The notes beneath the pieces are model-generated. The model was not told the origin of the DNA and did no database searches. It saw nothing but the letters and a program-made list of their open reading frames with translations. The position numbers were made by a program, and so were the translations under genes. DNA of 49,671 nucleotides. It comes from Candidatus Curtissbacteria bacterium RIFOXYA1_FULL_41_14. GTDB lineage: Bacteria > Patescibacteriota > Microgenomatia > Curtissbacterales > GWA2-41-24. The DNA is taken from NCBI GenBank assembly GCA_001775095.1, contig MFCA01000028.1:17746-67416 (forward strand), read 5' to 3'. Below, in pieces: positions 12,874-43,883 of the stretch (positions within the stretch are counted from its first letter, which is position 1; the number at the start of each line of letters is the position of its first letter).

Positions 12874-13401
12874 ATGGCGGATAAGATTGTTCCTGAGGTA
12901 TTTAATAGTCCGACTTATGGTCAGTTGTCATGGCAGCAAGCACTTTTGAAAATGATCGCCTTTATGGGAGTTGATACTAAAGCTTCCTACGAGATGATTA
13001 TCGGAACTGATTCTGAGGCTGTCAATGGTATGGCCGATTTTGTTTCAGCTGTAATTGTTCACAAAAAGGGCAGAGGCGGAATCTATTTCTGGGCAAGGCA
13101 AAAAATAGATAATCTTCACTCAATGAGACAGAGGATTTGGCAGGAGGCGATTATTTCCTTGGCTGTGGCGGAGAAATTAGTTGGTGACTTAGTCCAGTTT
13201 GGTCTAGTTGATGGTCGCTCTAAGTCTGTGCTTGGGGATCCTGAGCGATTTAATCTGGAGATTCATGTTGATATCGGACCCAATGGGGAAACGCGTGCGA
13301 TGATTTCGGAAATTGTCGGAATGATTAGAGCCAATGGCTTCAAAGTTGCCACTAAACCAGCTTCCTGGGGCGCAAGCCACGTCGCAGATCGACATGTATA
13401 A
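12874..13401 (+). CDS. RNase H-like YkuK (DUF458) family protein
   Basis: IGTDSE, LEIHVDIG.NG.T, KP.SWGASHVADRH. Confidence 0.88.
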   Translation: MADKIVPEVFNSPTYGQLSWQQALLKMIAFMGVDTKASYEMIIGTDSEAVNGMADFVSAVIVHKKGRGGIYFWARQKIDNLHSMRQRIWQEAIISLAVAEKLVGDLVQFGLVDGRSKSVLGDPERFNLEIHVDIGPNGETRAMISEIVGMIRANGFKVATKPASWGASHVADRHV

Positions 13402-13509
13402 TGTCGATCGAAGACCATGAGTTATATCGAATGGTCGCTGACAGGCATGTGTAACATGACTGGCAGCGGCCCTGAGTACAATCGAAGGGTTGCGGATCGA
13501 CACGTCTAA
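13381..13509 (+). repeat. three recoded copies of the VADRHV-stop tail separated by inverted copies and 18-nt B hairpins
   Basis: Tails at 13381, 13434, 13489; hairpins at 13416-13433 and 13471-13488. Confidence 0.88.
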
Positions 13510-13557
13510 ACTAGGGTTTTTCTCTCAGAATAATATAAAATGAATTAGAGGATTATT

Positions 13558-14115
13558 ATGAATAGTCCCAAACATTTTGCGATTACGGATGACGTCCATC
13601 AACGGACAATTATTCTCGCCCGTTTAAGACTGCCATGGCTAATTGTGGGTCTGACAGGGGGCTTGGCTGCATCTTTTTTGGTGTCTAAGTTTGAAGATGT
13701 GCTGGCTGCAAACCTGTATCTTGTCTTTTTTATACCAGTAATTGTCTATTTAAGCGATGCGGTGGGAACTCAGACAGAAGTTATTTATGTAAGGAATTTG
13801 TCCACTTTTAAGGATAATTTCGCAAAATATTTAGCTAAAGAAATATTAGTAGGGGGCTTTTTGGGGGCTGTTTTGGGCGTATTGTTAGGTTTGGCAGCTT
13901 TTGCGTGGCTAAGGTCTGTTGAGACCGCCATAACAGTAGGTTTTGCAATGTTTTTAAATACTACCATTGCACCTGTGATTGCCGTAGTTATTCCAGAGAT
14001 TTTATCTAAAGAAAATATCGACCCGGCTTTAGGCGGAGGTCCATTTACTACAGTAATACAAGATTTTGTCAGCTTGTTAATTTATTTCCTTGTTGCCACC
14101 GCGATAATTTTGTAA
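13558..14115 (+). CDS. MgtE-type Mg2+ transporter, membrane domain only
   Basis: RLPWL, FIPVI, IDPALGGGPFTTVIQD. Confidence 0.88.
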   Translation: MNSPKHFAITDDVHQRTIILARLRLPWLIVGLTGGLAASFLVSKFEDVLAANLYLVFFIPVIVYLSDAVGTQTEVIYVRNLSTFKDNFAKYLAKEILVGGFLGAVLGVLLGLAAFAWLRSVETAITVGFAMFLNTTIAPVIAVVIPEILSKENIDPALGGGPFTTVIQDFVSLLIYFLVATAIIL

Positions 14116-14132
14116 CTGAAAAAAACACTAAA

Positions 14133-14879
14133 TTACGCTTGGTTTGGGTACTGTCTGCTGATATCTGTTGTGGGATCTCCAATTACTTTAAAAATAGAGC
14201 TAACCGAAACAACGGTGGAAAGATCTCTTATAGTGGCAATTGCTGATTGAAAATTGCTTTCCGGGCTGGAATCAAGTAAGAAGGCGATTTCAGCAAGACC
14301 TCCTTTGGCTTCTGGTTGTATCAATGAGCAGATGTTTAAATTGGAGTTTGCCAGTGTTTGGCATAAACTAGCCAATACTAATGGTTTATCCTTGACTCTC
14401 ACTCGGAAATAATGGCTTGTTTGAATATCATGATCAAGATCAGGAATTGGGGATACACCTTGTTTTTCGCTGTCTTTTAATGTTGATATGTAGACTAGAT
14501 TTTTACTTTCTGCCTGAGCCGACGGATGATTTTTTCTAATAAGAGTTGGTCCGATCCAAGCCACTAGCCCATTATTCCCAGTTCTGGCAATGGCAATGCG
14601 TTTTACAGCGTAACCAATAGGGTCAAATTGGCTGGCAAAGAAATGATCACGTTCTGTAATTCGTGCTTGATTAAGATCAATTTGATCTGGTTTTAGATTT
14701 ATTCCAAAAGCTGCATTTAGAATTGAGCAAAAGATTTTACGGGAATGACCCCTTCCTACTGGAATTTGGATTCCACCTGCAAGTTCAGGGGGAATAGTGT
14801 TTCTCAAAAGATCAACAATAGGGATAATTTTTTCGTTTGCGACGAGAGCGTCTGCTCTATAACGTTCGGATAAACCCAT
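14133..14879 (-). CDS. degenerate homoserine dehydrogenase C-terminal domain plus ACT domain
   Basis: ILNAAFG, GYAVKRIAIA, PTLIRKNHP, YFRVRVKDKPLVLA; no Rossmann domain. Confidence 0.65.
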   Translation of the reverse strand: MGLSERYRADALVANEKIIPIVDLLRNTIPPELAGGIQIPVGRGHSRKIFCSILNAAFGINLKPDQIDLNQARITERDHFFASQFDPIGYAVKRIAIARTGNNGLVAWIGPTLIRKNHPSAQAESKNLVYISTLKDSEKQGVSPIPDLDHDIQTSHYFRVRVKDKPLVLASLCQTLANSNLNICSLIQPEAKGGLAEIAFLLDSSPESNFQSAIATIRDLSTVVSVSSIFKVIGDPTTDISRQYPNQA

Positions 14880-14956
14880 AGTGAAGAGGTATTATAGGCA
14901 AAACAAAAGCCCACGTCAAACGCGATGGGCTTCTGTTTTTTTTACTTTTGAATTGG

Positions 14957-15559
14957 CTATTTTTTCTTTCTGCGTTTTCTCTTTGTTGTTGACTTTCGAC
15001 TTTGCGCTTTCGACTTTGACTCTGGCTTAACTGGTCCTTCTTCCTCTTCCTTCGTATACCACCAGGCGGCAATAATTACTAAAGCAACGACTACTAAGAT
15101 GACCAGGGCCGTATTTTTATCAAAACTGGATGCGGAAACCGGTGACGGCGAACCGACTGGTTCATTTTTAAAATTAACACTCACCACGACCGGGGGATTA
15201 AGTGAGCTGTGATCATTGTTGACAAGTTCGGCTCTTAAATTATGATCCCCATAGGAAACATCACTGAAAGTAAAATCATCCTTTATTAATTTAACAGCCG
15301 ACTCGCGCGTAGGACTGGCCTCATCAAGCCAGAGATGGATATGTCCTTGACCTACCCGCGGTAATTGATTTGTTTGATAATCGGTCAGCTGGAAATTTTC
15401 GATGGAAAAAAGAATGGGCACCCTGTTCTCATATAAAGTCTGGCCTTCAGTAGGCGTTATTACTTTTAATAAGGGGGTAGAGCTTTGAGCAAAAACCGAA
15501 GTGGCTAAAAGGACAGAAAATGCAAAAGCTCCAAAAAAATACTTCGCAATTTCACGCAT
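14957..15559 (-). CDS. exported protein with C-terminal TM anchor
   Basis: Signal peptide VFA-Q, GHIHLWLD, H.LRAELVNNDH, TM plus basic tail. Confidence 0.75.
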   Translation of the reverse strand: MREIAKYFFGAFAFSVLLATSVFAQSSTPLLKVITPTEGQTLYENRVPILFSIENFQLTDYQTNQLPRVGQGHIHLWLDEASPTRESAVKLIKDDFTFSDVSYGDHNLRAELVNNDHSSLNPPVVVSVNFKNEPVGSPSPVSASSFDKNTALVILVVVALVIIAAWWYTKEEEEGPVKPESKSKAQSRKSTTKRKRRKKK

Positions 15560-15866
15560 GATAATGACGAGAGTCATTCTATGACAGACCCCTCAAAAGG
15601 TGTCAATAGTGATCTATTTTTACCCGAATAAGACCAAAATCAGGGTAAAAAATTAGCTCGACATTATTTTTTTCGGTAATTTTTCGTGTTCGGTAAAAAT
15701 TCGGTATGTGAAATTTTTAGATAATTTTAAATTTATATTGAATTTTAAATTATTTAATTTTCAAAAATTCGAACATTTAGATTTCATTTAAAATTTTAAA
15801 TTTTAAATTGAAAATTTATCGTTGTCTTTTAGATGTTAAGATCAGCTGTTATAATCTGATTTACCT

Positions 15867-16820
15867 ATGGTAGATAAAATTCGTAACATCATTATCATCG
15901 GTTCCGGCCCGGCAGGACTAACTGCTGCTCTTTATAATGCGCGGGCGAATTTAAATCCTCTGGTTATAGCCGGAGTTAAATGGGGTGGTCAGTTGATGTT
16001 GACTACAAATGTTGAAAACTATCCGGGTTTCCCTCAAGGCATTTTAGGTCCGGATTTGATGCAAAAATTTAGAGATCAGGCCGGGAGATTTGGAGCTGAA
16101 ATTCTCAATGTTGATGTTGTCTCCGTTAATTTTAAATCACGTCCATTTAAAATCGTAGCGGACAGTAAAAGCTATTCAACAAAATCAGTCATCGTGGCTG
16201 CTGGAGCGGAAACCAATTGGCTAAATTTGCCAAATGAGCAAAGACTTATCGGTAAGGGTGTTTCTTCATGCGCACCTTGTGATGCCTTTTTCTTTAAAGA
16301 TAAAAAAGTGATTATTGTCGGCGGCGGGGACAGTGCGATGGAGGAGGCATTGACTTTAACTAAATTTGCAACAAGTGTGGCAATAGTCCACAGACGAGAT
16401 GAATTTAGGGCTTCCAAGATTATGCTTGGACGGGCCAGAGCCAATAAGAAGATATCCTTTATTATTAATAGCCAAGTTGTCGATGTTTTAGGAAGGGATA
16501 AAGTGGAAGGGGTTAAGATTAAAAACGTTAAAGATGGAAAAGTTAAGGAATTACCCATCGATGGTATGTTTTTAGCGATTGGGCAAAGTCCACTGACTAA
16601 TATTTTTAAGGGGCAGATCGGGCTTGATGAGAGAGGTTATGTTAAACGCGTACCACAAGGCGACGGTCCCGGGAAATTTCAAATGACAACTTCAGTTGAA
16701 GGAGTTTTTGTAGCCGGCGATGTCCATGATTACCACTACCGTCAGGCAGTAACGGCGGCAGGTTACGGCTGTTCCGCCGCACTTGAAGCTGAAAAGTGGC
16801 TTGAGGCGCAGAGTGATTAA
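15867..16820 (+). CDS. trxB: thioredoxin-disulfide reductase
   Basis: GSGPAG, CAPCD, GGGDSA, YRQAVTAAG. Confidence 0.96.
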   Translation: MVDKIRNIIIIGSGPAGLTAALYNARANLNPLVIAGVKWGGQLMLTTNVENYPGFPQGILGPDLMQKFRDQAGRFGAEILNVDVVSVNFKSRPFKIVADSKSYSTKSVIVAAGAETNWLNLPNEQRLIGKGVSSCAPCDAFFFKDKKVIIVGGGDSAMEEALTLTKFATSVAIVHRRDEFRASKIMLGRARANKKISFIINSQVVDVLGRDKVEGVKIKNVKDGKVKELPIDGMFLAIGQSPLTNIFKGQIGLDERGYVKRVPQGDGPGKFQMTTSVEGVFVAGDVHDYHYRQAVTAAGYGCSAALEAEKWLEAQSD

Positions 16821-17463
16821 AGCAGCACTGATTGATCTTGACGGTTTCCTGGTAAACTCCGAAGAACTTTATTTAGAGGCTAATCAAATTTATTTCAAAA
16901 AGTTTAATTTTAACTTTACAGAGGATTTACATCGTCAGAGAACGGGTCAGAAGTTTGCCGAGTGGATCAAAACCGTGGTTTCTATCGATAAAACCGGCGA
17001 GGAGATTTTAAAAGAAAGAGATATTATCCTTTTCAATTTGGTCAGAAAGAAGCTTAAATTGTTGCCTGGCGCAAAGGCTTTTCTCGATAAAATTCATAAA
17101 ATTCTTAAAACAGCACTCGTTACTTCTAGCAAACAGGATTATGTAAATTTGGTTTTCCAGATCACAAACATTAAGAAATATTTTGATGTTGTCGTGACAG
17201 GCGAGATAGTGAAACATGGTAAGCCAGATCCTGAGTGTTATTTATATGCTGCGAAGCTGTTAGGAATTTCGTCCTCGGAGTGCGTTGTTTTTGAAGATGC
17301 GCCAAGTGGAGTGTTGGCTGGTAAAAATGCCTCAATGAAAGTGATCGCCGTTCCAAGTCAATTTGTAAAGGGTGATGTTGTTTTTTTTGAAGCTGATTTA
17401 GTTTTGAATAGTTTGATTGGGGCCGCGCTTGAGGCTGAAAAGTGGCTCGAGGCGCAAGATTGA
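16813..17463 (+). CDS. HAD-family phosphatase (beta-PGM-like)
   Basis: DLDGFL, VTS, GKPDP, FEDAPSG; GTG start overlapping trxB end. Confidence 0.9.
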   Translation: MIKAALIDLDGFLVNSEELYLEANQIYFKKFNFNFTEDLHRQRTGQKFAEWIKTVVSIDKTGEEILKERDIILFNLVRKKLKLLPGAKAFLDKIHKILKTALVTSSKQDYVNLVFQITNIKKYFDVVVTGEIVKHGKPDPECYLYAAKLLGISSSECVVFEDAPSGVLAGKNASMKVIAVPSQFVKGDVVFFEADLVLNSLIGAALEAEKWLEAQD

Positions 17464-17490
17464 CAGAGGCACAATTTTTTAGTAAGATTT

Positions 17491-17784
17491 GTGCCTATTA
17501 GGAGGGCCTTCATGGCACCTTTTTTTCTGGAAGGTACTCAATTAGAAATAGGATCTACAAGAGTAATTGGGAAAGGTAGTAAACGGGCATTAGTTGAAGT
17601 ACGTGATAAGACTACCTTATCACTCCGTTTGACTAATGGTCATCCAGTCTACGCAGGCGAAGCAACCACCGATGGATTAGATTTTGCAGGACACGTACAT
17701 ACGATTAGACATGATACAGAGTTGACTCGACAATCTGTATCTACCCTTGCCAAGAAACCTCAAATAATCTGGAAAGAAAGATAA
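17491..17784 (+). CDS. hypothetical protein
   Basis: 97 aa ORF downstream of TTGACA promoter-like site. Confidence 0.5.
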   Translation: MPIRRAFMAPFFLEGTQLEIGSTRVIGKGSKRALVEVRDKTTLSLRLTNGHPVYAGEATTDGLDFAGHVHTIRHDTELTRQSVSTLAKKPQIIWKER

Positions 17785-17939
17785 TTCATTGCCATTGACT
17801 TTGGCTTCCAATTCCTTTAAACTGCCACTAAATAAGTAGTAGTTTCACTGCTATGCTTAACGCCAAACGCTAAAAGCTTAAAGCCAAACAGTCAATAAAT
17901 GCGTTAAGCGTTAGTCGTTTAGCGTTTAGCGATTTAAAA

Positions 17940-18482
17940 ATGTTTCGTCTTTCCCAAAAAGCAGATTACGGATTGATTTTACTGTCGTCACTGGCCAAGC
18001 TTCACTCCGTAGCCGGACTTCACTCCCGGAGTGAAGTCAAGGCGATATCTGGAGGACACTCCGGGAGTGTCACCGACAGTTCTGAGATTCACCCCCGGGG
18101 TGAAGTCAAGGCGATGTCAGGTTTACACCCCGGGGGTGTGAACCAAGCAGGCTATGTTTCCATTTCCTCGGTTGCCGCTAGACATAAACTCTCCCCCAAA
18201 TTTCTTTCTCAAATAGCCCGCGAACTCAAAGAGGCTGGGATCTTAAAATCCAAGGAGGGGGTCAGCGGAGGTTATAACTTAGCCAAGAAACCCAGGGAGA
18301 TTAAGATTATCGATGTTTTAAATGTTTTAGAAGGCAAGTTTTTCGAAGGTCGGTGTTTTGAGGAAGAGGGTAAATGTATTTGTGGAGCAGGTATTATATG
18401 GAAGGATATGAAAAATCAGGTTGAAGCGGTGCTAGGCGGAAAATCGGTTGCGGATCTGGTAAAATCTAAGCCTAATTCCTAA
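17940..18482 (+). CDS. Rrf2 family regulator (IscR-like) with in-frame repeat insertion
   Basis: LSQKADYG, FLSQI...LK.AG...S.EG..GGY.LAK, three Cys; upstream of iscS. Confidence 0.9.
   Translation: MFRLSQKADYGLILLSSLAKLHSVAGLHSRSEVKAISGGHSGSVTDSSEIHPRGEVKAMSGLHPGGVNQAGYVSISSVAARHKLSPKFLSQIARELKEAGILKSKEGVSGGYNLAKKPREIKIIDVLNVLEGKFFEGRCFEEEGKCICGAGIIWKDMKNQVEAVLGGKSVADLVKSKPNS
18021..18138 (+). repeat. two tandem palindromic A elements in frame in rrf2
   Basis: Arms at 18021, 18057, 18090, 18126; 69-nt period. Confidence 0.9.
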
Positions 18483-18503
18483 TTGAAGCAGTAAATTGAA
18501 GTA

Positions 18504-19664
18504 ATGAGGAAAAGAATATATCTTGATTATGCGGCGACGACGCCAGTTGATCCGGCGGTTTTAGTGGCGATGCGGCCATATTTTAACCGTGACTTTGGCA
18601 ATCCTTCGTCTTTACACTCCTTCGGTCAAAAAGCCAAAAGTGCATTAGAGGGGAGTCGAAATGTTATTGCCGGGCTGATTGGTGCCAAAAGCGAGGAAAT
18701 TATTTTTACTTCTTCGGCAACAGAAAGCAACAATTTGGCCTTGAAGGGGGTGGCATTTGCCAATCGCGATAAGGGTAATCACATCATCATTTCTGCAATT
18801 GAGCATGATTGCGTTTTAAATACCGCTCTTTGGCTTAGCAAACAAGGATTTGAAATAACCCAAATTCCGGTTGGTAAAGACGGTCTGGTTGATCCTGAGA
18901 GGATTGAAAAATCAATCAAAAAGGATACGATTCTGGTTTCTGTCATCTGGGGGAATAATGAAATCGGTACTTTGCAGCCGATTGTTGAAATCGGCAGAAT
19001 TTGCCGGAAGAAAAACGTTCTATTTCATACAGACGCGGCTCAGGCTTTCGGTAAAATTCCAATTGATGTTGTCCGCGACAATGTGGATCTTCTGACTGCT
19101 TCTTCGCACAAAATCTACGGTCCAAAAGGCGCGGCATTTTTGTTCGTCAAAAGAGGAATTTTATTGACCCCGATTTTGCACGGAGGCGGTCAGGAGCGAA
19201 ATTTACGTTCCTCAACCGAAAATATTGGCTCAATTGTCGGCTTTGCCATAGCAGCTGAGATTGCGGATGAAAGGATGAATAGCGAGAACAAAAAACTTTT
19301 AATGATGCGTGATAAAATTATCAATAAGATTTTGCGGAAAGTTCCCGATTCCTACCTTAACGGACATCCGACTAAAAGAATTTCCAATATTGCCAATTTG
19401 AGATTTGCATTTGTCGAAGGAGAATCGATGATCATGGAACTTTCTGCTGCGGGAATCGCGGTTTCAACCGGATCTGCCTGTTCATCTCCAAAATTGGAAC
19501 CATCGCACGTTCTTTTGGCTTTAGGCCTGCGGCCGGAGGAAATCCATGGATCAGTCAGAATTAGTCTGGGAAGATGGACGACCGACAAGGAGATTGATTA
19601 TCTTATCGAGGTTTTGCCAAGAGTAGTTGAAAAGCTGCGAAAAATTTCGCCTTTTGCGAGGTAG
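18504..19664 (+). CDS. iscS: cysteine desulfurase
   Basis: YLDYAATT, GNPSS.H, HTDAAQ, SSHKIYGPKG, STGSACSS. Confidence 0.95.
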   Translation: MRKRIYLDYAATTPVDPAVLVAMRPYFNRDFGNPSSLHSFGQKAKSALEGSRNVIAGLIGAKSEEIIFTSSATESNNLALKGVAFANRDKGNHIIISAIEHDCVLNTALWLSKQGFEITQIPVGKDGLVDPERIEKSIKKDTILVSVIWGNNEIGTLQPIVEIGRICRKKNVLFHTDAAQAFGKIPIDVVRDNVDLLTASSHKIYGPKGAAFLFVKRGILLTPILHGGGQERNLRSSTENIGSIVGFAIAAEIADERMNSENKKLLMMRDKIINKILRKVPDSYLNGHPTKRISNIANLRFAFVEGESMIMELSAAGIAVSTGSACSSPKLEPSHVLLALGLRPEEIHGSVRISLGRWTTDKEIDYLIEVLPRVVEKLRKISPFAR

Positions 19665-19668
19665 ACCT

Positions 19669-20181
19669 ATGTATTCAGAAGACGTCATTAAACATTTTAG
19701 AAATCCCCATAATATGGGGAAAATCAAAAAACCCGATGGTATCGGTAAGGTCGGGAATATTATCTGTGGAGACGTCATGTGGCTTTATATCAAGGTGGGG
19801 AAATCCGCCAGCCGGCGGAAAAAGGACGAGGAAGTAATCATCGATGTTAAATTTGAAACTTTTGGCTGTACGGCGGCGATTGCAACCAGCAGCATGATTA
19901 CGGACTTAGCCAAGGGAAAAACCTTTGAGGAGGCTTTAAAAATAAATAAACAGGAAATAACCGAGTCATTAGGGGGTTTACCACCAATTAAAGTTCACTG
20001 TTCGGTTCTGGCAAGCGATGCGCTGGTTGAGGCAATTTATGATTATCTTGCAAAAAACAAAAGACCCATTTCAAAAGAACTTGAAGAGCGTCATGTGCAT
20101 ATTAAAAGAGAAAAAGAAATTATCGAGGAAAGATATAAAGAGTGGGTAGGGAAGCAAGAAGAAGTCGTAGGAGAAAAGTAA
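19669..20181 (+). CDS. iscU: Fe-S scaffold IscU/NifU-like
   Basis: HFRNPHN.G, CGD, GCTAAIA, LPPIKVHC; start ATG 19669. Confidence 0.93.
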   Translation: MYSEDVIKHFRNPHNMGKIKKPDGIGKVGNIICGDVMWLYIKVGKSASRRKKDEEVIIDVKFETFGCTAAIATSSMITDLAKGKTFEEALKINKQEITESLGGLPPIKVHCSVLASDALVEAIYDYLAKNKRPISKELEERHVHIKREKEIIEERYKEWVGKQEEVVGEK

Positions 20182-20191
20182 CCCTTACCAG

Positions 20192-20348
20192 TGTCATTCT
20201 CGCGAAAGTCTTTCGACCCTGAGCTCAAGACCGAAGGGCGGGAATCTATACAATTAAAACTGGATCCCGTATCAAGTCTTCGACCGTGAGACCCTCAACT
20301 CTAAGACTTGGACTTGAAGAGCTCAGACCGAATCGGTGCGGGATGACA
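20192..20348 (+). repeat. nested palindromic element C
   Basis: TGTCAT...ATGACA; inverted homolog at 47435-47564. Confidence 0.9.
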
Positions 20349-20414
20349 TTGAAAGATGGATAGCATAATTTTGAGAATTGAAAGTTGAGAGTTGAGAATC
20401 TAAAATTAGTATAG

Positions 20415-20639
20415 ATGGCAAAGAAATATCGAATTAAAGTTGATAGGGATCTTTGTATTGGAGCGGCCTCTTGTGTGGCTCTGGCTGCCAAGACTTTTCA
20501 GTTGGACAGCGAAAATAAGGCAATAGTACTATCGGAAGATGCGGATACTGTAGAGGCGATTAGACTGGCAGCCGAATCATGCCCAACTAAAGCGATAATT
20601 CTTGAGGATGCCGAAACCGGCAAACAAGAATACCCCTAG
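20415..20639 (+). CDS. ferredoxin, probably [3Fe-4S]
   Basis: CIGAASC...CPTKAI. Confidence 0.92.
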   Translation: MAKKYRIKVDRDLCIGAASCVALAAKTFQLDSENKAIVLSEDADTVEAIRLAAESCPTKAIILEDAETGKQEYP

Positions 20640-20640
20640 T

Positions 20641-20761
20641 AGCGGGTCCTGTCAGTCGTTTCCTTCCCGCCAGTGCTCACTGATATAATGTTTGATGTAT
20701 TAAATTGATCCGTATGGTCAGTTGCGCGCTGTCGGGAACCCTTCCACGACTGCCATCCGCT
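20641..20761. repeat. long imperfect inverted repeat
   Basis: GCGGGT..CAGTCGT..TTCCCGCCAG..ACTGA pairs with TCAGT..CTGTCGGGAA..ACGACTG..ATCCGC; left end recurs at 25323. Confidence 0.7.
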
Positions 20762-20841
20762 CGCATCGATCACTAACGTAATTATTTGAGAACACCTCCC
20801 TAATGTTAGAATGGAAATATTATTAGAGGAATTTTTAAGTG

Positions 20842-22146
20842 ATGAAAAGCGTTGATTTCTTGATAGTTGGTGGAGGTGTGACTGGGACAACGGCTGCCCA
20901 GACGATAAGAGGTTTGAGGCCTGATTCTTCCGTTGTTATTCTTTCCGACGAGCCTTACGAACTTTATTCACGGATTCTTTTGACCAGTTATATTCGCGGT
21001 GAGGCAACTCAGGAGCAAGTTTTTTTGAAAAGAAATGAGTGGTATCAGGAGAATAGGATAGATTTAGTTAAAGGGGTTTCAGCCCAAAAGCTTGATGCAA
21101 ATGCCCACACAGTAGAGTGTGCAAATGGCGATGTTTATCAATATAAAAAATTACTTTTGGCACTGGGTGCCCGGCCGATAAAATTAAATGTTCCCGGAAG
21201 CGAACTTGGAAATATTTCATATATGTGGACAATTGAGGATGCTGAAGAAGTAATCAATGCACTTAAAGGAACAAATGAGAGCCGCCGGCCCGGAGGGCCT
21301 CTGACCCGGAGGGGTGTGGTTATCGGCGGAGGATTTATTGGACTTGAATTTGCCCACGCCTTTAAAGTTAAGGGAATCGAGACGACAATCCTAGACGGCA
21401 GCGAGTATTACTGGGGTAACAGGCTGGATAAACAGTCGAGCCAAGTTATTCAAAATATCCTGGAAAAAAACGGGATAAGCGTAATTGCCGGTGAGATGGT
21501 TGAAAAATTTGTTGGCAGTCGAGAGAATCCGCAGAATGTCGGAAAGGTCATTACCAAATCAGGGAAGGAATTTGGATGTGATTTGGTCGGAGTTGGGGTT
21601 GGCATTAAAAGCGATCTTGGGTGGCTTGAAGGAAGCGGGATAAAAATTGATCAGGGAATTGTTACAAATGAATATTTAGAAACGAATCTTGGCGATGTTT
21701 ACGCAGCCGGTGATTGTGCCAATTATTATGATGTTATTGTCGAAGGTCAGCACTTGGTCGGAACTTGGGCCAATGCCGCAACCCAGGCAGTAGCGGTCGG
21801 AAAGACCATGACCGGGGTTAAAACTGTATTTGAAGCGGTTTGCGCATATACTGCAAGATTTTTTGAATCAACCTGTTCATTTGTCGGAATGACGGAAGCG
21901 GATTTTGCGGATGAGGTTGTAACACGCGGAACTGTCGCTGAAGGAAAAATTTCCAGAATTTTCCTGAAGAATTACCCTTCGACAAGCTCAGGGTCTATGA
22001 CGCGGATTGTTGGCGCAATTATTGCCAATAATTTTGGCGAAGTTGCGCCAATCACTGATGCAATTAAAAATAAGGTTGATGTATCACAAAATAGAGATAA
22101 ACTTGCGGATGCTAATTTTGATTTGCACTCACTCCCCATAAGCTAG
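20842..22146 (+). CDS. FAD-dependent NAD(P)H oxidoreductase (ferredoxin/rubredoxin reductase-like)
   Basis: GGGVTG, GGGFIGLE, VYAAGD. Confidence 0.9.
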   Translation: MKSVDFLIVGGGVTGTTAAQTIRGLRPDSSVVILSDEPYELYSRILLTSYIRGEATQEQVFLKRNEWYQENRIDLVKGVSAQKLDANAHTVECANGDVYQYKKLLLALGARPIKLNVPGSELGNISYMWTIEDAEEVINALKGTNESRRPGGPLTRRGVVIGGGFIGLEFAHAFKVKGIETTILDGSEYYWGNRLDKQSSQVIQNILEKNGISVIAGEMVEKFVGSRENPQNVGKVITKSGKEFGCDLVGVGVGIKSDLGWLEGSGIKIDQGIVTNEYLETNLGDVYAAGDCANYYDVIVEGQHLVGTWANAATQAVAVGKTMTGVKTVFEAVCAYTARFFESTCSFVGMTEADFADEVVTRGTVAEGKISRIFLKNYPSTSSGSMTRIVGAIIANNFGEVAPITDAIKNKVDVSQNRDKLADANFDLHSLPIS

Positions 22147-22182
22147 TAATCTTAATATAGGTATTTAAGGAATATTTGAAAA

Positions 22183-22647
22183 ATGATTTACATCGCTTCT
22201 GATCATGCTGGATTTTATCTTAAGAAACAGCTGATCCAATATCTCAAAATTAAAGGTTTGGAACTTGAGGATCTGGGGCCATATGAGATGGATCCGGATG
22301 ATGATTACCCCGATTTTATAATTCCTTGTGCCCTTCGCGTGGCGGAAAGCCACGCTCAGGGTAAACCCGACGATGTTGGAATAGTTATTGGCGGTTCCGG
22401 GCAGGGGGAGGCAATTGCCGCCAATAAAGTTAAAGGTATTTGGGCAGCAGTTATAAATAGTGCAAATCCGCAAATTGCGAAACTAGCCCGTGAGCACAAT
22501 AATGCCAATGTTCTTTCCCTTGGCGCAAGGTTTCTGTCGGCCGATGATGCTAAAAAAGCTGTTAGTTCTTGGCTTGATGCCGAATTCGAAGGGGGTCGGC
22601 ACCAAAAAAGGATTAACAAAATCATTAAATTTGAAAAGAGACTATGA
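22183..22647 (+). CDS. rpiB: ribose-5-phosphate isomerase B
   Basis: ASDHAG, GGSGQGE, ANK..G, AREHNNAN, GRH..R. Confidence 0.94.
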   Translation: MIYIASDHAGFYLKKQLIQYLKIKGLELEDLGPYEMDPDDDYPDFIIPCALRVAESHAQGKPDDVGIVIGGSGQGEAIAANKVKGIWAAVINSANPQIAKLAREHNNANVLSLGARFLSADDAKKAVSSWLDAEFEGGRHQKRINKIIKFEKRL

Positions 22648-23042
22648 AGGTAATTAAATTCATTAAAATATATGGCAGGTTTGAAAAAAACTTAGCTAAG
22701 ATCAATCTCTTCTTTATTTTTATCTTCCTTAACCTTTGGGACTATTTAATCAGCCGGGAGTTTTTTAATGGGATGATCCTTGGACTTGTGATGTTTGGGC
22801 CGGCAGTGTTTTTATGGTTTGTGGGTACAGTACGGGCAGCGGCTCTGGTGACCTTGGTCTCGATATTTGAATTTGGGGTGATGACTGTTTTTGTGCTTGA
22901 AGGATTCGAGCTGGGTGGTGCTGCTACTCCTTTGAAGTCAATTTTCTGGCTTCCTTATCTTCTAATGGCAGCGGTCAACGGCTTTTGGGGTTTAAAAATT
23001 TATTCGGATTATAGAGAGAAGAAGGTGAAGGTGCGGAGTTAA
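22644..23042 (+). CDS. hypothetical membrane protein
   Basis: ~4 TM; coupled to rpiB. Confidence 0.75.
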   Translation: MKVIKFIKIYGRFEKNLAKINLFFIFIFLNLWDYLISREFFNGMILGLVMFGPAVFLWFVGTVRAAALVTLVSIFEFGVMTVFVLEGFELGGAATPLKSIFWLPYLLMAAVNGFWGLKIYSDYREKKVKVRS

Positions 23043-23043
23043 A

Positions 23044-23097
23044 ATGACGGCCCGTGACTGGTTTGAGAAAGCTCAAAATGAGAAATTCGCAATTGGT
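23044..23097 (+). pseudogene. orphan 5' fragment of an fba allele
   Basis: MTARDWFEKAQNEKFAIG versus fba start MTARDWFLKAQTGGWAIG. Confidence 0.85.
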
Positions 23098-23207
23098 ACC
23101 CTTCGGCCCTTCGATGAAACTCAGGGTCTTCGACTTCGCTCAGGACGAAATTTTCAGATCCTGAAACCCTTCGACTGCACTCAGGACGAGCGAGTTCAGG
23201 ATGACAG
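23098..23207 (+). repeat. cluster of B hairpins plus half C element
   Basis: CCTTCGATGAAACTCAGG, TCTTCGACTTCGCTCAGG, CCTTCGACTGCACTCAGG, ending CAGGATGACA. Confidence 0.85.
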
Positions 23208-23222
23208 GAGGGGGAAAGTGTT

Positions 23223-24113
23223 GTGACAGCTAGAGATTGGTTTTTAAAGGCGCAGACGGGGGGTTGGGCAATTGGTGCATTCAATGCCGATAATTTGGAG
23301 ATTTTGAAGGCGATTTGTCTGGCGGCTAAAAATAAAAAATCGCCGGTGATGGTTGAGTTTTCTCCCGGGGAAGTTGACTATTTCGGCTTGAGGAACATTG
23401 TCGATTTAGTTAAAAACGCGCGCGAAGAGTATAGAATCCCGATACTTCTTAATTTGGACCATGGTAGAAAAGTTGAGGATTGCCTGGCGGCCGTCAATAT
23501 GGGTTCTTCGACAAGCTCAGGATCTTCGAGTTTCGACTTAATTCATTTCGACGGATCGGATTCGGAACTTGAGGAAAATATCCACAATACCAAGAAGGTT
23601 GTAGAAGCAGCTCATACCAAAGGTCTTCTGGTTGAGGGTGAGATTGACAAAATTCCCGGAGCAAGCGAAATCCATGATCAAGATCTTGATTCAGAGCTGG
23701 TTAAAAAGTCTTACACGGATCCCCAAAAAGCGGCTAAGTTTGTTTCCGAAACTGGTATAGATATTTTTGCGGCCTTTTTTGGCAATGTTCATGGGACATT
23801 TCCCAACCAGCCGGATTTGGATTTTGACCTTCTGGCTAGAATTCGGAAGTCTTTACCTGATACCTTTCTTTCGCTGCATGGTGGGTCTGGAATTCCAGCC
23901 GATCAAGTTAAACAGGCGATTGAAGTTGGAAAGATCGTTAAAGTCAATGTTAATACAGAGTTAAGACAAGCATTTCGCGACGCGTTAACCGAAAAGCTAG
24001 GGGAGAAACCCAATGAATATGCCATGTATAAAGTAATGCCTGACGTGATTTTGTCTGTGGCGGCGGTAGTGGAGTCGAAAATCGATATTTTCGGATCTGC
24101 AGGTCGAGTTTAA
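23223..24113 (+). CDS. fba: class II fructose-bisphosphate aldolase
   Basis: AIGAFN, LDHG, VEGEI, GNVHG, LHGGSG, KVNVNTE. Confidence 0.92.
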   Translation: MTARDWFLKAQTGGWAIGAFNADNLEILKAICLAAKNKKSPVMVEFSPGEVDYFGLRNIVDLVKNAREEYRIPILLNLDHGRKVEDCLAAVNMGSSTSSGSSSFDLIHFDGSDSELEENIHNTKKVVEAAHTKGLLVEGEIDKIPGASEIHDQDLDSELVKKSYTDPQKAAKFVSETGIDIFAAFFGNVHGTFPNQPDLDFDLLARIRKSLPDTFLSLHGGSGIPADQVKQAIEVGKIVKVNVNTELRQAFRDALTEKLGEKPNEYAMYKVMPDVILSVAAVVESKIDIFGSAGRV

Positions 24114-29164: not shown

Positions 29165-29197
29165 AATTCCCCAATTTGTGCTAAAATTTGAAAACTT

Positions 29198-29394
29198 GGA
29201 GCCGTAGCTCAACGGTAGAGCAGTACCCTTATATCTTGCTCATGGGCGCATAGCTCAATGGCAGAGCACCACTCTTATAAAGTGGCGGTTCTTGGTTCGA
29301 ATCCAAGTGCGCCCACAAGAACAAGATACATGAGCAAGATGTATTCTTGCGAATATAAGGTAAAGGTTTGATGGTTCGAATCCATCCGGCTCCA
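29198..29394 (+). tRNA. interrupted outer tRNA (Ile UAU if rejoined), ~124-nt insert in anticodon loop
   Basis: Acceptor GGAGCCG/CGGCTCC, D arm GCTC/GAGC, T arm GATGG-TTCGAAT-CCATC, TACC/GGTA stem, CTTATA..TATAA junctions. Confidence 0.7.
29244..29315 (+). tRNA. tRNA-Ile(UAU)
   Basis: Full cloverleaf GGGCGCA/TGCGCCC, CCACT-CT-TAT-AA-AGTGG, CTTGG-TTCGAAT-CCAAG; no encoded CCA. Confidence 0.93.
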
Positions 29395-29434
29395 CAAGTT
29401 CTCTGATGGAGCAATTCTGAATTAAAGTACTAAC

Positions 29435-35886: not shown

Positions 35887-35889
35887 AAT

Positions 35890-37014: not shown

Positions 37015-37245
<231 letters not shown>

Positions 37246-37250
37246 TTAAG

Positions 37251-38630: not shown

Positions 38631-38777
38631 ATGTTTTTGAAAATAATTTTTATCATAGCCGGGATTGCGGGGATCGTGGCGACTTTTTATGTTTCTTGGT
38701 TCTGGCGAGGATTGATTATTCCAATGGTGATTATTTTACTTGCAGATGTGGTTTGGGAGATCCTTAAGAAGAAATAG
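38631..38777 (+). CDS. 48-aa membrane protein (below ORF-track cutoff)
   Basis: MFLKIIFIIAGIAGIVATFYVSWFWRGLIIPMVIILLADVVWEILKKK; paralog at 42098. Confidence 0.7.
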   Translation: MFLKIIFIIAGIAGIVATFYVSWFWRGLIIPMVIILLADVVWEILKKK

Positions 38778-38778
38778 A

Positions 38779-39945: not shown

Positions 39946-39997
39946 AATTTAATATTTATCCTAAATGGGATTAATGTCAAGGATGAAGGGGTTTCGT

Positions 39998-40036
39998 TTA
40001 CAGCTGTTCCAGCTTTACCCTTCGGCTTCGCTCAGG
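39998..40036 (-). repeat. B hairpin plus recoded xer tail VKLEQL-stop
   Basis: Minus strand CCTGAGCGAAGCCGAAGG-GTAAAGCTGGAACAGCTGTAA. Confidence 0.85.
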
Positions 40037-40042
40037 ATGAAA

Positions 40043-40345
40043 TTAGAGCTGTTCCAATTTCACTTTTTCCTCGCCCTTGGGAGGCTGGATGAGAGAGAGG
40101 TAGCGTTCGGTGGTCGAAAGTCTCTTGTGGCCGGCGATTTTGGAAATTAGAACAAGCGATGCACCGGACGAAAGATGATGGGCAACCCAAGTGTGGCGAA
40201 GATCATTAACTTTGGCGCCCGAGATCCCTGCCCTTTTGTAGTAGCGGTCAATAGCAGTTCTGATATTTCTGACGAGAAGTGGTCTGCCGGTTTTGGTGAC
40301 GAAGAGGGTTTTATTGGTAGTTTTTGTGCGTTCTTCTAAATATCT
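40043..40345 (-). pseudogene. duplicate of the last 100 codons of the Xer-like recombinase
   Basis: Protein identical to the C-terminus of 43008-43883; only synonymous differences. Confidence 0.92.
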
Positions 40346-40353
40346 GTAGAAAA

Positions 40354-41460
40354 TCAAGAATTCGGAGGCCAAAGTTTCCAGACGGCCCATTGATCTTTGA
40401 GAACTACAACTGCTACCGAATCTACAAGATCAAATAGTCCCTCAGGGAAGACGTTGGTATTACTTAATTCAAAACAAATGTTTTCTTTTGTGCCTGGAAG
40501 CACCTCTTTACCAAAAAGGAAACCAAAAGGGCCACCTTGAGATTTTTTTGCCGGAATCACTCTTCCATCTTTGAGATAAACGACAATAGAGAGATCTACA
40601 TTATCTGTTATGTCCGATGAAAAACGAAGTGTTTCTGGAGAATTATTTTCAAAATCAAAAGAAATACATTGATAATATCTCTTCGGTACTCCTGTCCCTT
40701 CAGGATCCCAGGGATTTACGATTGGCCCTGTCAAAGTAATAGTGGCATAATCCCGTGCACTAAGGCTTTCACCCAAATTCTTATAATTATTAACGGCACC
40801 TTCTGGAATTAGCTGAGCTTTGCTCAAATCCGCAATCACTTCACCGTAGGGGATTGATCTTGGACTGACGCCATTTTCCATATTACCGTGGTCAGTGGAA
40901 AGTAAATTTGGTTTCTCTATCGCTACCGTTTTTGGTGCTGTACTTACTAAGATCAGAGGCAGGGCAAATCCTGGGGGAATTTTTCTGTGTTCTCCTGATT
41001 CTAAAGAGAACGGTTCATCCCAAAAATACTCTTCAAATTCGTCAAATTCTTCTCCATAGGCAGTAGGAACAAAATTTCGTGTGTTATAAGATCTTCCCTG
41101 ACCAGTAATCTTCAGGCCCAAATTAGCAAAAGTTCTTGTATCTAGTGTCTGTCCACTAATATTTCTGGCAACAGCTTCAATCACCTCAGTTTCTACTTCC
41201 GGTTTAGTTTCAAGAAAGTCTGGAATTGTTTGCCATCTTTTAATATAAATTTGCCAACCATCAGCTTCCAGAATTCCTTCTCTATTTTTTTCAACGCTTG
41301 GGGTTAATTCAGAAGTTGGCATACCTATTTCATCTTCATCATTTCCACCACAACCAGCTAACAAAGCAGTCCCGCCTAAGAATAATTTGAATGTCTTAGC
41401 AAGGAATCTTCTTCGACTAGCTTGAGTCAAAAGGATACCGGATGTTTGTTCAACTGTCAT
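40354..41460 (-). CDS. lipoprotein with twin-arginine-like signal
   Basis: SRRRFL...LLAGC. Confidence 0.75.
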   Translation of the reverse strand: MTVEQTSGILLTQASRRRFLAKTFKLFLGGTALLAGCGGNDEDEIGMPTSELTPSVEKNREGILEADGWQIYIKRWQTIPDFLETKPEVETEVIEAVARNISGQTLDTRTFANLGLKITGQGRSYNTRNFVPTAYGEEFDEFEEYFWDEPFSLESGEHRKIPPGFALPLILVSTAPKTVAIEKPNLLSTDHGNMENGVSPRSIPYGEVIADLSKAQLIPEGAVNNYKNLGESLSARDYATITLTGPIVNPWDPEGTGVPKRYYQCISFDFENNSPETLRFSSDITDNVDLSIVVYLKDGRVIPAKKSQGGPFGFLFGKEVLPGTKENICFELSNTNVFPEGLFDLVDSVAVVVLKDQWAVWKLWPPNS

Positions 41461-41511
41461 GACAAGCGGGAATTTTATCAGATACCCGATAGTTTTTCAA
41501 GTTCAAATGAG

Positions 41512-41634
41512 GTAAGTATTCAGTTTTCTCCAGCCAAGTCGTCATTGCGAGCGTAGCGAAGCAATCTTTTAGATCGCCACGGCTACTACGTAGCCTCGCG
41601 ATGACATATCCATTGGAGAAAGGTGAATACTTAC
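41512..41634. repeat. RPE-like element (41541-41606) nested in an outer inverted repeat
   Basis: GTAAGTATTCA..TTTCTCCA / TGGAGAAA..TGAATACTTAC flanks. Confidence 0.82.
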
Positions 41635-41644
41635 GATTTAGTTA

Positions 41645-42064
41645 TCAATAAAAATCTATCTTGTCACCTTTTGATTTTTTACTGATCTGGCGCCTCCCAG
41701 CATTTGTATAAAACCCCTCAAGTATTTCTTCTTTTAATCTTTCAAGGTCGTGAATATGACTTAGGATTTGAATATAAGCTGCCCTGGTCTTGTCAGTTCT
41801 GCCAAGCGGTGTCAAATTCGTGCGGAGAATTTTAGTTCTGTTTTCAAGAGCTTGAGTTAAAGTTTGGATTCGACCCTCAGGCGCAAGTATTAAGAATGTC
41901 TTGTTTTTAACTAAAACCTCCCAGTGACCATTGTCAACTAAAAATTCCAGTTCACGAGTTTCATCGGGAGATAGTCGAACTTCTTGTTTGGGTAGAACGC
42001 TTGCTGGTTTTGTAATTAAATCAATAATGTATCTTCTGGCGGTTTTTATGGATGATTTTTTCAT
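41645..42064 (-). CDS. hypothetical protein
   Basis: ORF; ATG 42064 preferred since ATG 42079 overlaps a TATAAT box. Confidence 0.6.
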   Translation of the reverse strand: MKKSSIKTARRYIIDLITKPASVLPKQEVRLSPDETRELEFLVDNGHWEVLVKNKTFLILAPEGRIQTLTQALENRTKILRTNLTPLGRTDKTRAAYIQILSHIHDLERLKEEILEGFYTNAGRRQISKKSKGDKIDFY

Positions 42065-42097
42065 TTGTGATGGGCACATTATAAAACTCTAGAGTAA

Positions 42098-42240
42098 TTG
42101 GTGCTACTCACGAGAATAATCTTTATCATTGTCGGTATTATAGCGACTTTTTACGTTTCCTGGTTTTGGAGAGGGTTAATTATTCCAATGGTTATTATTT
42201 TTTTTGCAGATGTTATTTGGGGATGCTTAAGAATAACTAG
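42098..42240 (+). pseudogene. frameshifted paralog of the 48-aa membrane protein
   Basis: ATFYVSWFWRGLIIPMVII shared; 1-nt loss after W leaves TAG 42238 out of frame. Confidence 0.7.
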
Positions 42241-42260
42241 CCTGATTTTGGGTTATCGAT

Positions 42261-42932
42261 TCAGCTTGGTGTTCTGGCCCTATGTCTTTGATCTTTGGCT
42301 GCTCTTGCTCTCGCTTTCTTTTGTTGAGTTGCTTGTCTTTCTTTCTTATCGAGTCTGTTTTGGATGACTCTGGCGATGTCTCGGCGATCCTGATGATTGT
42401 CTCGTTCTATCGGTAAACTATCGATTAATTCTTTGAGTCTCGAACTTTGAAGAACACCTTCTTCCGTGGCAACATCGAAAGCATTGACAGCACTTGGCCA
42501 GTCTTTCTCCTCAAAAGCCTTTTTACCGAAACCTTCAATTAAATCATTAATATAAGATTCGGTCTTTGTGGTTAACTCTTGATCAGTTTCAAATGGACTT
42601 CTGAGCTTAATATCAGACCATTTCCGAGAAATTGCATCAGGTATTTGATCAATTGTGAACACAGACCGAAATTCGATCATGGTATCGTCAGGTAGTGTTA
42701 TTGGTCTCGGAGCACCATCTCTAAATCGTGAACAGGATTCCAAGTCTTTTTTGTGTTGGTTATATAAGTCTATACCTGCTTCTTTATCCTTTCCCAAAGC
42801 TTCCAGAAGTTGTTGACGTTCTTGTCTTTCTTTTTCCAGTCCTTCTTGCTCAAACTGGGCCAGTTTGTCCGGGGTTAAACCGACAAAGTCAAGGACACGG
42901 ACATTTGGGAGAATTGGTGATCTCTCTGCCAT
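42261..42932 (-). CDS. hypothetical protein
   Basis: 223 aa, MAER start, charged helical. Confidence 0.7.
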   Translation of the reverse strand: MAERSPILPNVRVLDFVGLTPDKLAQFEQEGLEKERQERQQLLEALGKDKEAGIDLYNQHKKDLESCSRFRDGAPRPITLPDDTMIEFRSVFTIDQIPDAISRKWSDIKLRSPFETDQELTTKTESYINDLIEGFGKKAFEEKDWPSAVNAFDVATEEGVLQSSRLKELIDSLPIERDNHQDRRDIARVIQNRLDKKERQATQQKKARARAAKDQRHRARTPS

Positions 42933-42938
42933 TCTAAA

Positions 42939-42986
42939 TTAGAGTTGTTCTAATTTCACTTTTTCTTCCCTTCGACTTCGCTCAGG
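42939..42986 (-). repeat. B hairpin plus recoded xer tail EEKVKLEQL-stop
   Basis: Minus strand CCTGAGCGAAGTCGAAGG-GAAGAAAAAGTGAAATTAGAACAACTCTAA. Confidence 0.88.
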
Positions 42987-43007
42987 GTAAACTGCTCGGA
43001 AAAAGTT

Positions 43008-43883
43008 TTAAAGTTGCTCGAGCTTAACTTTTTCCTCGCCTTTTGGGGGTTGGATGAGAGAGAGGTAGCGTTCGGTGGTCGAAAGTCTCTTGTGGCCGGC
43101 GATTTTGGAAATTAGAACAAGCGATGCACCGGACGAAAGATGATGGGCAACCCAAGTGTGGCGAAGATCATTAACTTTGGCGCCCGAAATCCCTGCCCTT
43201 TTATAGTAGCGGTCAATAGCAGTTCTGATATTTCTGACTAAAAGTGGTCTTCCGGTTTTGGTAACAAAGAGAGTTTTATTGGTAGTTTTTGTCCGTTCCT
43301 CCAGATACCTTTTGAGTACAGCTTCGGCTGCTTTATTTAAAGGGACTGTCCGCTCAGGCCTATTTTCCATAGGTCTAATGTAAAGATGACCCTCCTTACC
43401 GTCTTCTCCTAAAAAGACATCATCAGTTCTTAAATTGGCCAATTCCCCAATTCTGATACCTGTCTGAAGGAGTACCTCGATAATAGCAGCAATTCTAGCA
43501 TCATCTCTGGCGGCATCACGCAGTGCCCTGTATTCAGTGGGGGAAAGAATTCTTGGAGGTTTTGCCTCAAATTTTGGATGGTCAACTAAACTTGCCGGGT
43601 CGTCGGTTAGATACTCCTGGACTTTTAAATATCTAAAAAATGTTTTGGTGGAATTTAATTTTCGCGAAATTGATTTTAGGGTGTAGCCGCTATTTTGCAT
43701 TTTGGCCAAAAAGCCTTTAATGTCATCTGAAGTGACCTCATGGACGTGAGCTTTTGATATCTCTTGTAAGAATGCTATCAGCTGCTCGATATCTTTACCG
43801 TATGCTAAGATGGTAGCGGAGGCTCGCTTTCGGCCTTTTAGGTGTTCAATAAACTCTTTATGAGCTTCGTCCAATTTTTTCAT
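43008..43883 (-). CDS. XerC/XerD-like tyrosine recombinase
   Basis: N-terminal SAM-like domain, TGIRIGEL, NDLRHT, AGH..LSTTERY. Confidence 0.92.
   Translation of the reverse strand: MKKLDEAHKEFIEHLKGRKRASATILAYGKDIEQLIAFLQEISKAHVHEVTSDDIKGFLAKMQNSGYTLKSISRKLNSTKTFFRYLKVQEYLTDDPASLVDHPKFEAKPPRILSPTEYRALRDAARDDARIAAIIEVLLQTGIRIGELANLRTDDVFLGEDGKEGHLYIRPMENRPERTVPLNKAAEAVLKRYLEERTKTTNKTLFVTKTGRPLLVRNIRTAIDRYYKRAGISGAKVNDLRHTWVAHHLSSGASLVLISKIAGHKRLSTTERYLSLIQPPKGEEKVKLEQL

Follow-up and report, generated by a model that had tools for sequence, protein, structure and literature searches.

A terminus cassette is the name used here for an arrangement found in a stretch of 49,671 nucleotides (nt) from the genome of Candidatus Curtissbacteria bacterium RIFOXYA1_FULL_41_14; this whole stretch is referred to below as the window. 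The genome, of groundwater origin, measures 1.15 Mb and is available as a metagenome assembly in 30 contigs that is 99.66% complete. At a ykuK-like gene, at two xer recombinase genes and at fba, the end of the gene in use is accompanied by a second, untranslated copy of the same end, and a short repeated element with the motif CCTGAG-N5-YCGAAGG (element B) directs its CGAAGG side at that untranslated copy. A sequence-only reading of the window had described this juxtaposition at the three kinds of gene, and it is confirmed at the positions collected in Table 1. The window holds 5 copies of the motif against 0.01 expected, and 0 of 100 shuffled sequences reach 5. The observation is real and extends beyond motif B, as it involves several element families and both the heads and the tails of genes.

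The ykuK-like gene carries three tails, all of which encode VADRHV*, although their nucleotide sequences differ pairwise at 4, 5 and 7 positions, including the arginine codon (CGA vs AGG). The first tail is the one in use, the second is at once displaced and the tail of another cassette, and the third is taken as the resident tail because neither an inverted piece nor an element follows it. The segment 13381-13512 has a predicted fold of -29.2 kcal/mol (z -4.7), a value that 0 of 200 shuffles equalled, and its stable stems are formed by each tail paired with the inverted piece that comes after it. At xerA, the coding tail and its displaced copy both read EEKVKLEQL* and differ at 7 nt, while the tail of the xer fragment and its copy both read VKLEQL* with 4 nt differences. 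The earlier description of the ykuK and xer copies as differing only synonymously is thus borne out, since each peptide is retained. At fba, the head in use begins with VTARDWFLKAQTGGWAIG, and the orphan head MTARDWFEKAQNEKFAIG, 18 codons long, differs from it at 5 of 18 residues, so that the differences are not purely synonymous. The spacers in the window measure 24-125 nt and contain no open reading frame (ORF).

Table 1. Positions of gene ends, inverted pieces, elements and related features in the window and elsewhere in the genome
Feature	Position	Strand	Remark
ykuK-like gene (RNaseH_like, PF04308)	12841-13401	+	coding tail VADRHV* at 13381-13401 (final 21 nt)
Inverted copy TGTCGATC of GATCGACA from the ykuK coding tail	13402-13409	+	stop codon in loop
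Degenerate B core CCATGAG-N5-TCGAATG of the first ("alpha") cassette	13415-13433	+	
Displaced ykuK tail copy 2, VADRHV*	13434-13454	+	5 nt off the coding tail; tail of the second ("beta") cassette
Inverted copy of the start of tail copy 2	13455-13467	+	11/13 complementary
B core CCTGAGTACAATCGAAGG	13471-13488	+	
Displaced ykuK tail copy 3, VADRHV*	13489-13509	+	no inverted piece or element after it
Orphan fba head MTARDWFEKAQNEKFAIG	23044-23097	+	
Three tandem B units	23108-23185	-	23108-23125, degenerate 23127-23144, 23168-23185; CGAAGG ends toward orphan head
fba gene (class II aldolase, PF01116), head in use	23223-24113	+	own GGAGG upstream
Displaced xer-fragment tail VKLEQL*	39998-40018	-	
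B core at xer fragment	40019-40036	-	
TTTCAT, 5/6 inverted copy of GTGAAA	40037-40042	-	after xer-fragment coding tail
C-terminal fragment of xer-like recombinase (PF00589 positions 81-167)	40037-40390	-	coding tail 40043-40063
Displaced xerA tail EEKVKLEQL*	42939-42968	-	
B core at xerA	42969-42986	-	
Inverted copy AACTTTTTCC of GGAAAAAGTT from the start of the xerA coding tail	42998-43007	-	
xerA tyrosine recombinase (PF00589, PF02899)	43008-43883	-	coding tail 43008-43037
Sites of the motif CCTGAG-N5-YCGAAGG	13471-13488	+	
Sites of the motif CCTGAG-N5-YCGAAGG	23108-23125, 23168-23185, 40019-40036, 42969-42986	-	
GIY-YIG ORFs (81-115 amino acids) in or beside tRNA genes, displaced tRNA end on far side (G000)	C1:3866-4633, C1:19192-19781, C25:52814-53217, C7:11985-12300, C5:11388-11842, C26:2034-2404		
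B in GTGAACT arrays (G000)	C6:20622, C6:21346, C12:3699, C12:10017, C12:11405, C17:6379-7015, C18:5390, C21:18773, C23:1602, C29:78246		
Composite with 13-nt cargo (G000)	C1:22415, C2:52903, C6:17558		weaker copies C22:27145, C25:12496

A common order underlies nearly every tail unit: the gene body is followed by a new tail with its stop codon, an inverted copy of the start of that tail, a small element, and finally the old tail with its own stop. The replacement tail comprises 6-15 codons plus the stop, the inverted copy covers its first 5-14 nt, and the element is B or one of two others, A and C. Head cassettes are the mirror image of this arrangement and bring their own ribosome-binding site. 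In either form the resident terminus is displaced outward, lies unused and adjoins the element; in arrays, the last copy is assigned to the resident end because it lacks both the inverted piece and the element. The inverted pieces differ from gene to gene and change together with codon choice. Among ykuK cassettes, for instance, the piece tracks the arginine codon of its own tail (CGA with tgtcgatc, AGA with tgtctgtc, CGT with cgtgacgatc). Of 22 units, all intact by construction because the unit finder required orphans to match at 6 or more of 7 positions, 18 have an inverted piece that suits its own tail better than the following one, 2 show an equal fit and 2 a worse one. Adjacent tails agree at 11.05 of 15 positions, random pairs at 11.48, and are therefore no closer than chance. 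The replacement tail forms a set with its inverted piece, and both are of foreign origin relative to the displaced tail. A role of the inverted piece as a guide for the displaced tail was considered and is disfavoured, because its complementarity to the next tail averages 5.5 of 8, approximately what the fixed codon positions alone provide.

Recoded gene ends occur across the genome. The ends of 2417 long ORFs were searched for their last six residues and stop within the following 300 nt, which yielded 13 recoded copies at 10 genes, compared with 0, 0, 0, 0 and 1 in five controls with permuted tails; the copies are 1-11 nt off the coding tail, mostly at least 4. A strand-aware scan for any recoded peptide returned 215 same-strand 6-mer pairs vs 34 and 27 in two controls, adding further tails and four heads, those of yebC, a PHP-like gene, a gene with FGLDIGRSF, and fba. 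The yebC head encodes MSGHSKWSQI twice with 12 nt differences and has an inverted 10-mer. At glmS, KPRNLAKSVTVK* is present in three copies that end in TAG, TAA and TGA; at rpoC, 16 residues are duplicated with 11 silent differences; and a GAPDH-like gene has a tail copy as well. Motif B is not involved at these three genes, where the copies adjoin family A (cttgcggtcctc...gcgggcct) or family C (ATATCAG...CTGATAT). A search for an exact-8-mer triple pattern (Y, inverted Y, element, Y) gave 46 matches vs 21 in the control, mostly from other repeat families. In total, the cassette layout is found at about 15 genes, including glmS, rpoC, the GAPDH-like gene, yebC and fba, and the ends concerned are strongly conserved termini of housekeeping genes. 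The sequence-only reading regarded motif B as the mark of an oriented junction. Orientation is upheld wherever it was legible (of 22 distinct first units, 20 point forward and none is reversed), but specificity is not, as families A and C and tiny unnamed hairpins occupy the same place, making at least three small elements in this role.

Comparison with related genomes indicates how the two ends came to lie side by side. Orthologues of the ykuK-like gene with at least 58% identity have an orphan VADRHV-like tail 24-87 nt past the stop at 26 of 55 metagenome loci, and none was seen at 25 more distant (outgroup) loci. Cassettes are also present at 5 of 77 glmS loci, and fba has head cassettes in 4 of 28 genomes. 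The cassette-bearing ykuK loci are scattered over the gene tree, on which presence and absence require at least 16 changes on 63 tips, compared with a shuffled mean of 20.9 (an approximate count, as the cassette-bearing locus L003 was scored "none"). Even tight clades are mixed in layout, one holding alpha-T, beta-T and alpha-beta-T and another none, alpha, alpha-gamma and gamma. Cassettes thus turn over fast between close relatives.

The comparison of orthologous loci in sister genomes, which the earlier reading had called for, did bring to light a cassette-free close relative of L059, namely L056. The L059 orphan has 3 differences from the native tail of its close relative L056, whereas the L059 coding tail is 5 away, and 12 of the 29 differences between the two genes fall within the last 60 nt, as in a co-converted gene end. 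In L021, the third tail equals the native tail of L018 save for the first codon. Spacer identity is uncoupled from gene identity (Spearman -0.02 over 231 pairs), and near-identical spacers occur in diverged genes, with 31 of 32 positions shared at 72% gene identity and 28 of 32 at 62%. Taken together, the comparisons indicate that new tail, inverted piece and element move from lineage to lineage as one unit, and that the displaced copy is the resident end. The earlier proposal that incoming DNA replaces a gene end and leaves the old one as a scar was therefore largely right.

Several young cases illustrate how a cassette may arise. The glmS gene of L138 contains an exact 39-nt duplication around a 21-nt insert that consists of the inverted first 7 nt and a tiny hairpin. 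G004 combines an exact 10-nt repeat with an inverted piece of 5 nt and an element of family A, and in L063 the two tails are identical at 20 of 21 positions. The length of the target duplication varies between 10 and 54 nt, and the only inverted pair is derived from the target. It is reasonably likely that small cassettes originate through insertions that duplicate a long piece of the target, spread among diverged lineages, and disappear when their repeats recombine. At birth, insertion of a small element at a gene end would duplicate 10-54 nt of the target and add a snap-back copy of where the duplicated stretch begins. The gene would stay intact and survive the insertion, as its stop or start codon is part of what is duplicated. 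Gene-anchored recombination would later carry cassettes from one lineage into another, diverged one, setting a tail with the codon choices of the first beside that of the second and hence leaving only synonymous differences. Those with similar copies would be lost by recombination between the copies, as hybrid tails suggest; the L053 orphan, for example, joins the start of a beta tail to the end of the last tail of its relatives. The initiating breaks would probably be made by a nuclease acting in trans. As a conjecture, the birth step can be broken into four events: at a nick, the element would attach by its 3' end to the 5' side of the target segment, the free 3' end of the target would prime displacement synthesis of the duplicate, the new strand would switch to the displaced strand and copy its start to form the inverted piece, and it would finally be joined to the 5' end of the element.

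A number of observations weigh against this account of birth, transfer and loss. The inverted piece begins 0-6 nt inside the duplicate and not at its edge, a loose fit to the snap-back step, and at the fba head cassette an inverted piece is missing. Within this genome, exact direct repeats accompanied by the expected inverted piece are no more frequent than in the control geometry (15 vs 18, among 85 repeats), so that the birth step depends on a handful of cases from other genomes. Close similarity between spacers could stem from constraint and not from transfer, and the integrity of the orphans could be maintained by selection instead of youth. No enzyme is tied to the cassettes, and none was found in the window either, as the sequence-only reading had already stated. 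Finally, the number of B copies correlates with the number of GIY-YIG genes (0.59) about as well as with that of Y1 genes (0.54), in a set of related genomes that are not independent.

Small GIY-YIG nucleases are nevertheless the best lead towards a catalyst, and no more than a lead. The genome has 17 GIY-YIG matches, 16 of which are ORFs of approximately 81-115 amino acids (two with longer open frames of 169 and 236 amino acids); these 16 genes are the best candidates for the initiating nuclease. Eight of the 16 lie within 450 nt of a tRNA gene, compared with about 0.04 expected per ORF, and beyond six of them a copy of the first or last 14 nt of the tRNA is found. These GIY-YIG genes therefore sit in tRNA genes with a displaced-end layout. 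The earlier suggestion to look for such genes beside the motif proved fruitful: of 114 B-like sites, 9 have a GIY-YIG ORF no further than 350 nt away (1.4 expected), and one ORF is bracketed on both sides by the same B-bearing hairpin. In two near-identical copies the start codon is immediately preceded by a B-like unit, and removal of the ORF would give the order of an ORF-less cassette. Two copies of 89 amino acids are one residue apart, and the copy number ranges from 2 to 17 per genome. It is possible, and proposed here tentatively, that terminus cassettes form a distinct ORF-less class of mobile DNA that homes into conserved gene ends of related bacteria, spares the host gene by supplying a recoded end, and depends in trans on the expanded family of small GIY-YIG genes, while ORF-bearing kin of the cassettes would invade tRNA genes likewise. 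If so, the inverted piece would be a working part, serving folding or target choice, and not a scar. A separate observation concerns 29175-29395 of the window, where tRNA-Ile(tat) (29244-29316) is seemingly nested in a split tRNA-like gene with its 5' half at about 29200-29235 and its 3' half at about 29347-29392. The inverted repeats atcttgctcat and atgagcaagat bracket the nested gene, and ARAGORN and Rfam call the inner tRNA only.

The wider setting of element B bears on a more passive explanation. B occurs in 30 of 32 genomes of the family, with 0-1 occurrences of the reversed pattern as a control, and is the conserved core of a small repeated element across a Microgenomates family that is most closely related, among named groups, to Candidatus Curtissbacteria and Levybacteria. 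Across this genome there are 49 strict copies. A perfect (6/6) recoded terminus adjoins only 3 of the 49, compared with 7 of 980 shuffled pairings and with 2 of 49, as raw matches, in a mirror control. One decayed case and one N4 variant come in addition. About 44 of the 49 are unrelated to gene ends and lie in the tips of longer hairpins with variable stems, in GTGAACT heptamer arrays or in long ORFs, and B does not favour gene 3' ends (7 sense, 12 antisense). This distribution is what would be expected if hairpin elements insert anywhere with long duplications and ordinary recombination shuffles the resulting insertions and deletions, with no drive, dedicated nuclease or specialisation for ends, and with only ends being seen because internal insertions kill genes. 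The mosaic gene bodies of relatives and the shared layout of several unrelated elements fit this explanation as well. It has more difficulty with cassettes that occupy half of the ykuK lineages, stacked up to two deep and with a common boundary, with targets that are conserved housekeeping termini, and with GIY-YIG genes that show the same layout in tRNA genes. A purely passive origin is accordingly judged rather doubtful.

Two further settings of B may be recorded here. In the tandem GTGAACT arrays, each B core is preceded by ctgc and followed by gtgaact. A multi-copy composite has the layout of a cassette with a cargo of just 13 nt, in the order GCTCGAACAA, a small hairpin, TTGTTCGAGC, the B core and GCTCGAACAA again; one copy lies 30 nt downstream of an XerC/D-like gene on C2. 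In Rfam 15, matches of the window at the gathering score are limited to three tRNAs.

The order of parts also recalls integrons, in which arrays of cassettes share one orientation and the sequence at the start of a unit recurs, inverted, after the cargo (the R' and R'' boxes of attC). Xer-type tyrosine recombinases might accordingly use B, folded up with the inverted piece, as an attC-like site for the insertion of circular tail cassettes, a notion to which the presence of a B core within about 50 nt past the stop of all three PF00589 genes of the genome lends some appeal. Two of these three recombinases are paralogues, however, and one is a fragment. The paired sequences at the cassettes are gene-specific, unlike the conserved R''/R' boxes, and the cargo is merely a gene end; the B core lacks dyad arms and forms no fold of its own, and elements without B behave alike. 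An integron-like origin is hence unlikely.

It was originally supposed that motif B forms a hairpin marking a cleavage or recombination junction, the work for example of an HUH enzyme associated with repetitive extragenic palindromes (REPs). Neither part of this idea fared well. The 18-mer by itself has a minimum free energy of 0, and with its flanks it reaches -4.5 kcal/mol, which is not better than shuffles; the stable palindrome of 20-40 nt that characterizes REPs mobilized by REP-associated tyrosine transposases (RAYTs) is absent. B does resemble REPs and their doublets (REPINs) in being short, abundant, family-wide and often extragenic, and Y1 (HUH) transposase-like genes are available, with two Y1_Tnp ORFs in this genome, Y1 genes in 26 of 32 family genomes, and the correlation given above. 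However, each Y1 gene is flanked by a different palindrome of its own and not by B. A B-like site lies within 350 nt of only 1 of 19 Y1 ORFs (22 loci were examined, 3 of them without an ORF), and the palindrome at the Y1 copy on C29 forms its own REPIN-like doublets. To our knowledge, recoded gene-end copies have not been reported with REPs, and movement of B as a REP by Y1 proteins is very improbable. Two REPIN-like doublets of cacccc(c/t)ggggtg are located at 17960-18200 (-) of the window; the same palindrome flanks the Y1 transposase-like gene C29:210863-211543.

An old duplication in place is just as hard to sustain. Selection might keep both tails coding, for instance if frequent excision of the unit required a usable downstream copy, and the orphans indeed retain their frame and their own stop across many lineages despite nucleotide variation, as do the three glmS copies with their different stop codons. 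Against this stand the fit of the inverted piece to the upstream tail only, the variation of cassette presence and type among close relatives, the likeness of orphans to native tails of cassette-free relatives, and the existence of decayed orphans (L033/34, L043, L048). An assembly artefact from mixed strains, conceivable for a metagenome assembly in many contigs, can be practically dismissed, since the same layouts recur in dozens of independent assemblies and 95-98% of sampled words of 13301-23300 are found in 20 runs from 11 studies (15 of these runs may be the source of the assembly).

Known elements offer several analogies. The prophages e14 and phage 21 in E. coli icd, as well as islands that integrate into tRNA genes, insert in a gene end and supply a replacement for it. 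As at the cassettes, the gene remains intact through its new end, the old end lies at the far junction, and the differences are mostly silent. These prophages and islands are kilobases long, carry their own integrase and use a defined core site, whereas cassettes span tens of bases, have no integrase inside and occupy many targets. Homology-facilitated illegitimate recombination in naturally transformable bacteria, in which a one-sided anchor in the gene and a non-homologous joint would leave a new and an old end, has a similar outcome, but it predicts neither a fixed boundary nor an inverted piece nor recurrent element families. Insertion sequences of the IS200/IS605 group and their palindrome-associated derivatives (PATEs) insert without duplication, unlike the cassettes with their duplications of 10-54 nt, and neither TnpB nor IS110 domains were found in the genome. 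Miniature inverted-repeat transposable elements (MITEs) differ as well, as the duplication length here is not fixed and no terminal inverted repeats exist beyond the target-derived pair.

The closest documented case is that of mobile endonuclease ORFs (mORFs) in fungal mitochondria, which follow the same logic in a different form. A foreign gene C-terminus is described at Allomyces atp6 and at Glomus atp6, atp9, cox2 and nad3, fused in phase with the native one left downstream, the two being diverged in DNA and identical or nearly identical in protein (PMC3630166, which cites the Allomyces atp6 case). The native copy matches close relatives, transfer between lineages was inferred, and the insert of about 1 kb encodes a LAGLIDADG or GIY-YIG nuclease (PMC3630166). 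Cassettes agree with mORFs in the in-phase terminus, in the displaced and unused native terminus, in the resemblance of the native copy to relatives (L059/L056 and L021/L018) and in an inserted copy that is diverged in DNA and conserved in protein. They differ in that the insert between the copies is 24-144 nt long without an ORF, so that no endonuclease ORF accompanies them in the window, and in their inverted piece, their occurrence at both heads and tails, their stacked arrays, their several element families and their setting in a bacterial chromosome. The only comparable ORF-bearing form in this genome is that of the GIY-YIG ORFs in tRNA genes. No description of terminus cassettes in bacteria was found in the literature searched, a search whose scope excluded most subscription journals and supplements.

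Genomes of the Candidate Phyla Radiation measure about 1 Mb and leave little room for selfish DNA, yet about 15 genes here show a rewriting of their ends that preserves the protein. If cassettes spread between lineages, they would provide a new marker by which to follow gene flow among uncultured groundwater bacteria, would cause pseudo-ORFs and wrongly called gene ends in annotation, and would be a natural example of target recoding that lets an insertion be tolerated where it might otherwise be removed. Through its link to the small GIY-YIG genes in tRNA genes, the search for the enzyme has a testable way forward.

Several minor observations concern the same genes in other genomes. In L213 (G047:C12), positions 910-1504 hold an orphan fba head of at least 47 codons, with a hydrophobic ORF of 147 amino acids between this head and the gene in use; displaced heads can therefore flank larger cargo. 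In G013:C25:34022-34969, fba matches fall in two pieces about 70 nt apart within a single open frame of 332 amino acids. Positions 1455-2164 of L004 (G006) contain a ykuK orthologue in which residues 154-171 are duplicated around an insert of about 100 nt. This genome also has one reverse transcriptase (RVT_1) ORF of 496 amino acids (G000 C5:1772-2365). A terminator-like hairpin, aaaagccc(t/a)cgtcaaacgcga(a/t)gggcttctgttt, follows just after the ykuK tail in L019, L026, L029, L034, L042, L052 and others. Its offset past ykuK varies slightly among lineages, and it is probably another mobile small element.

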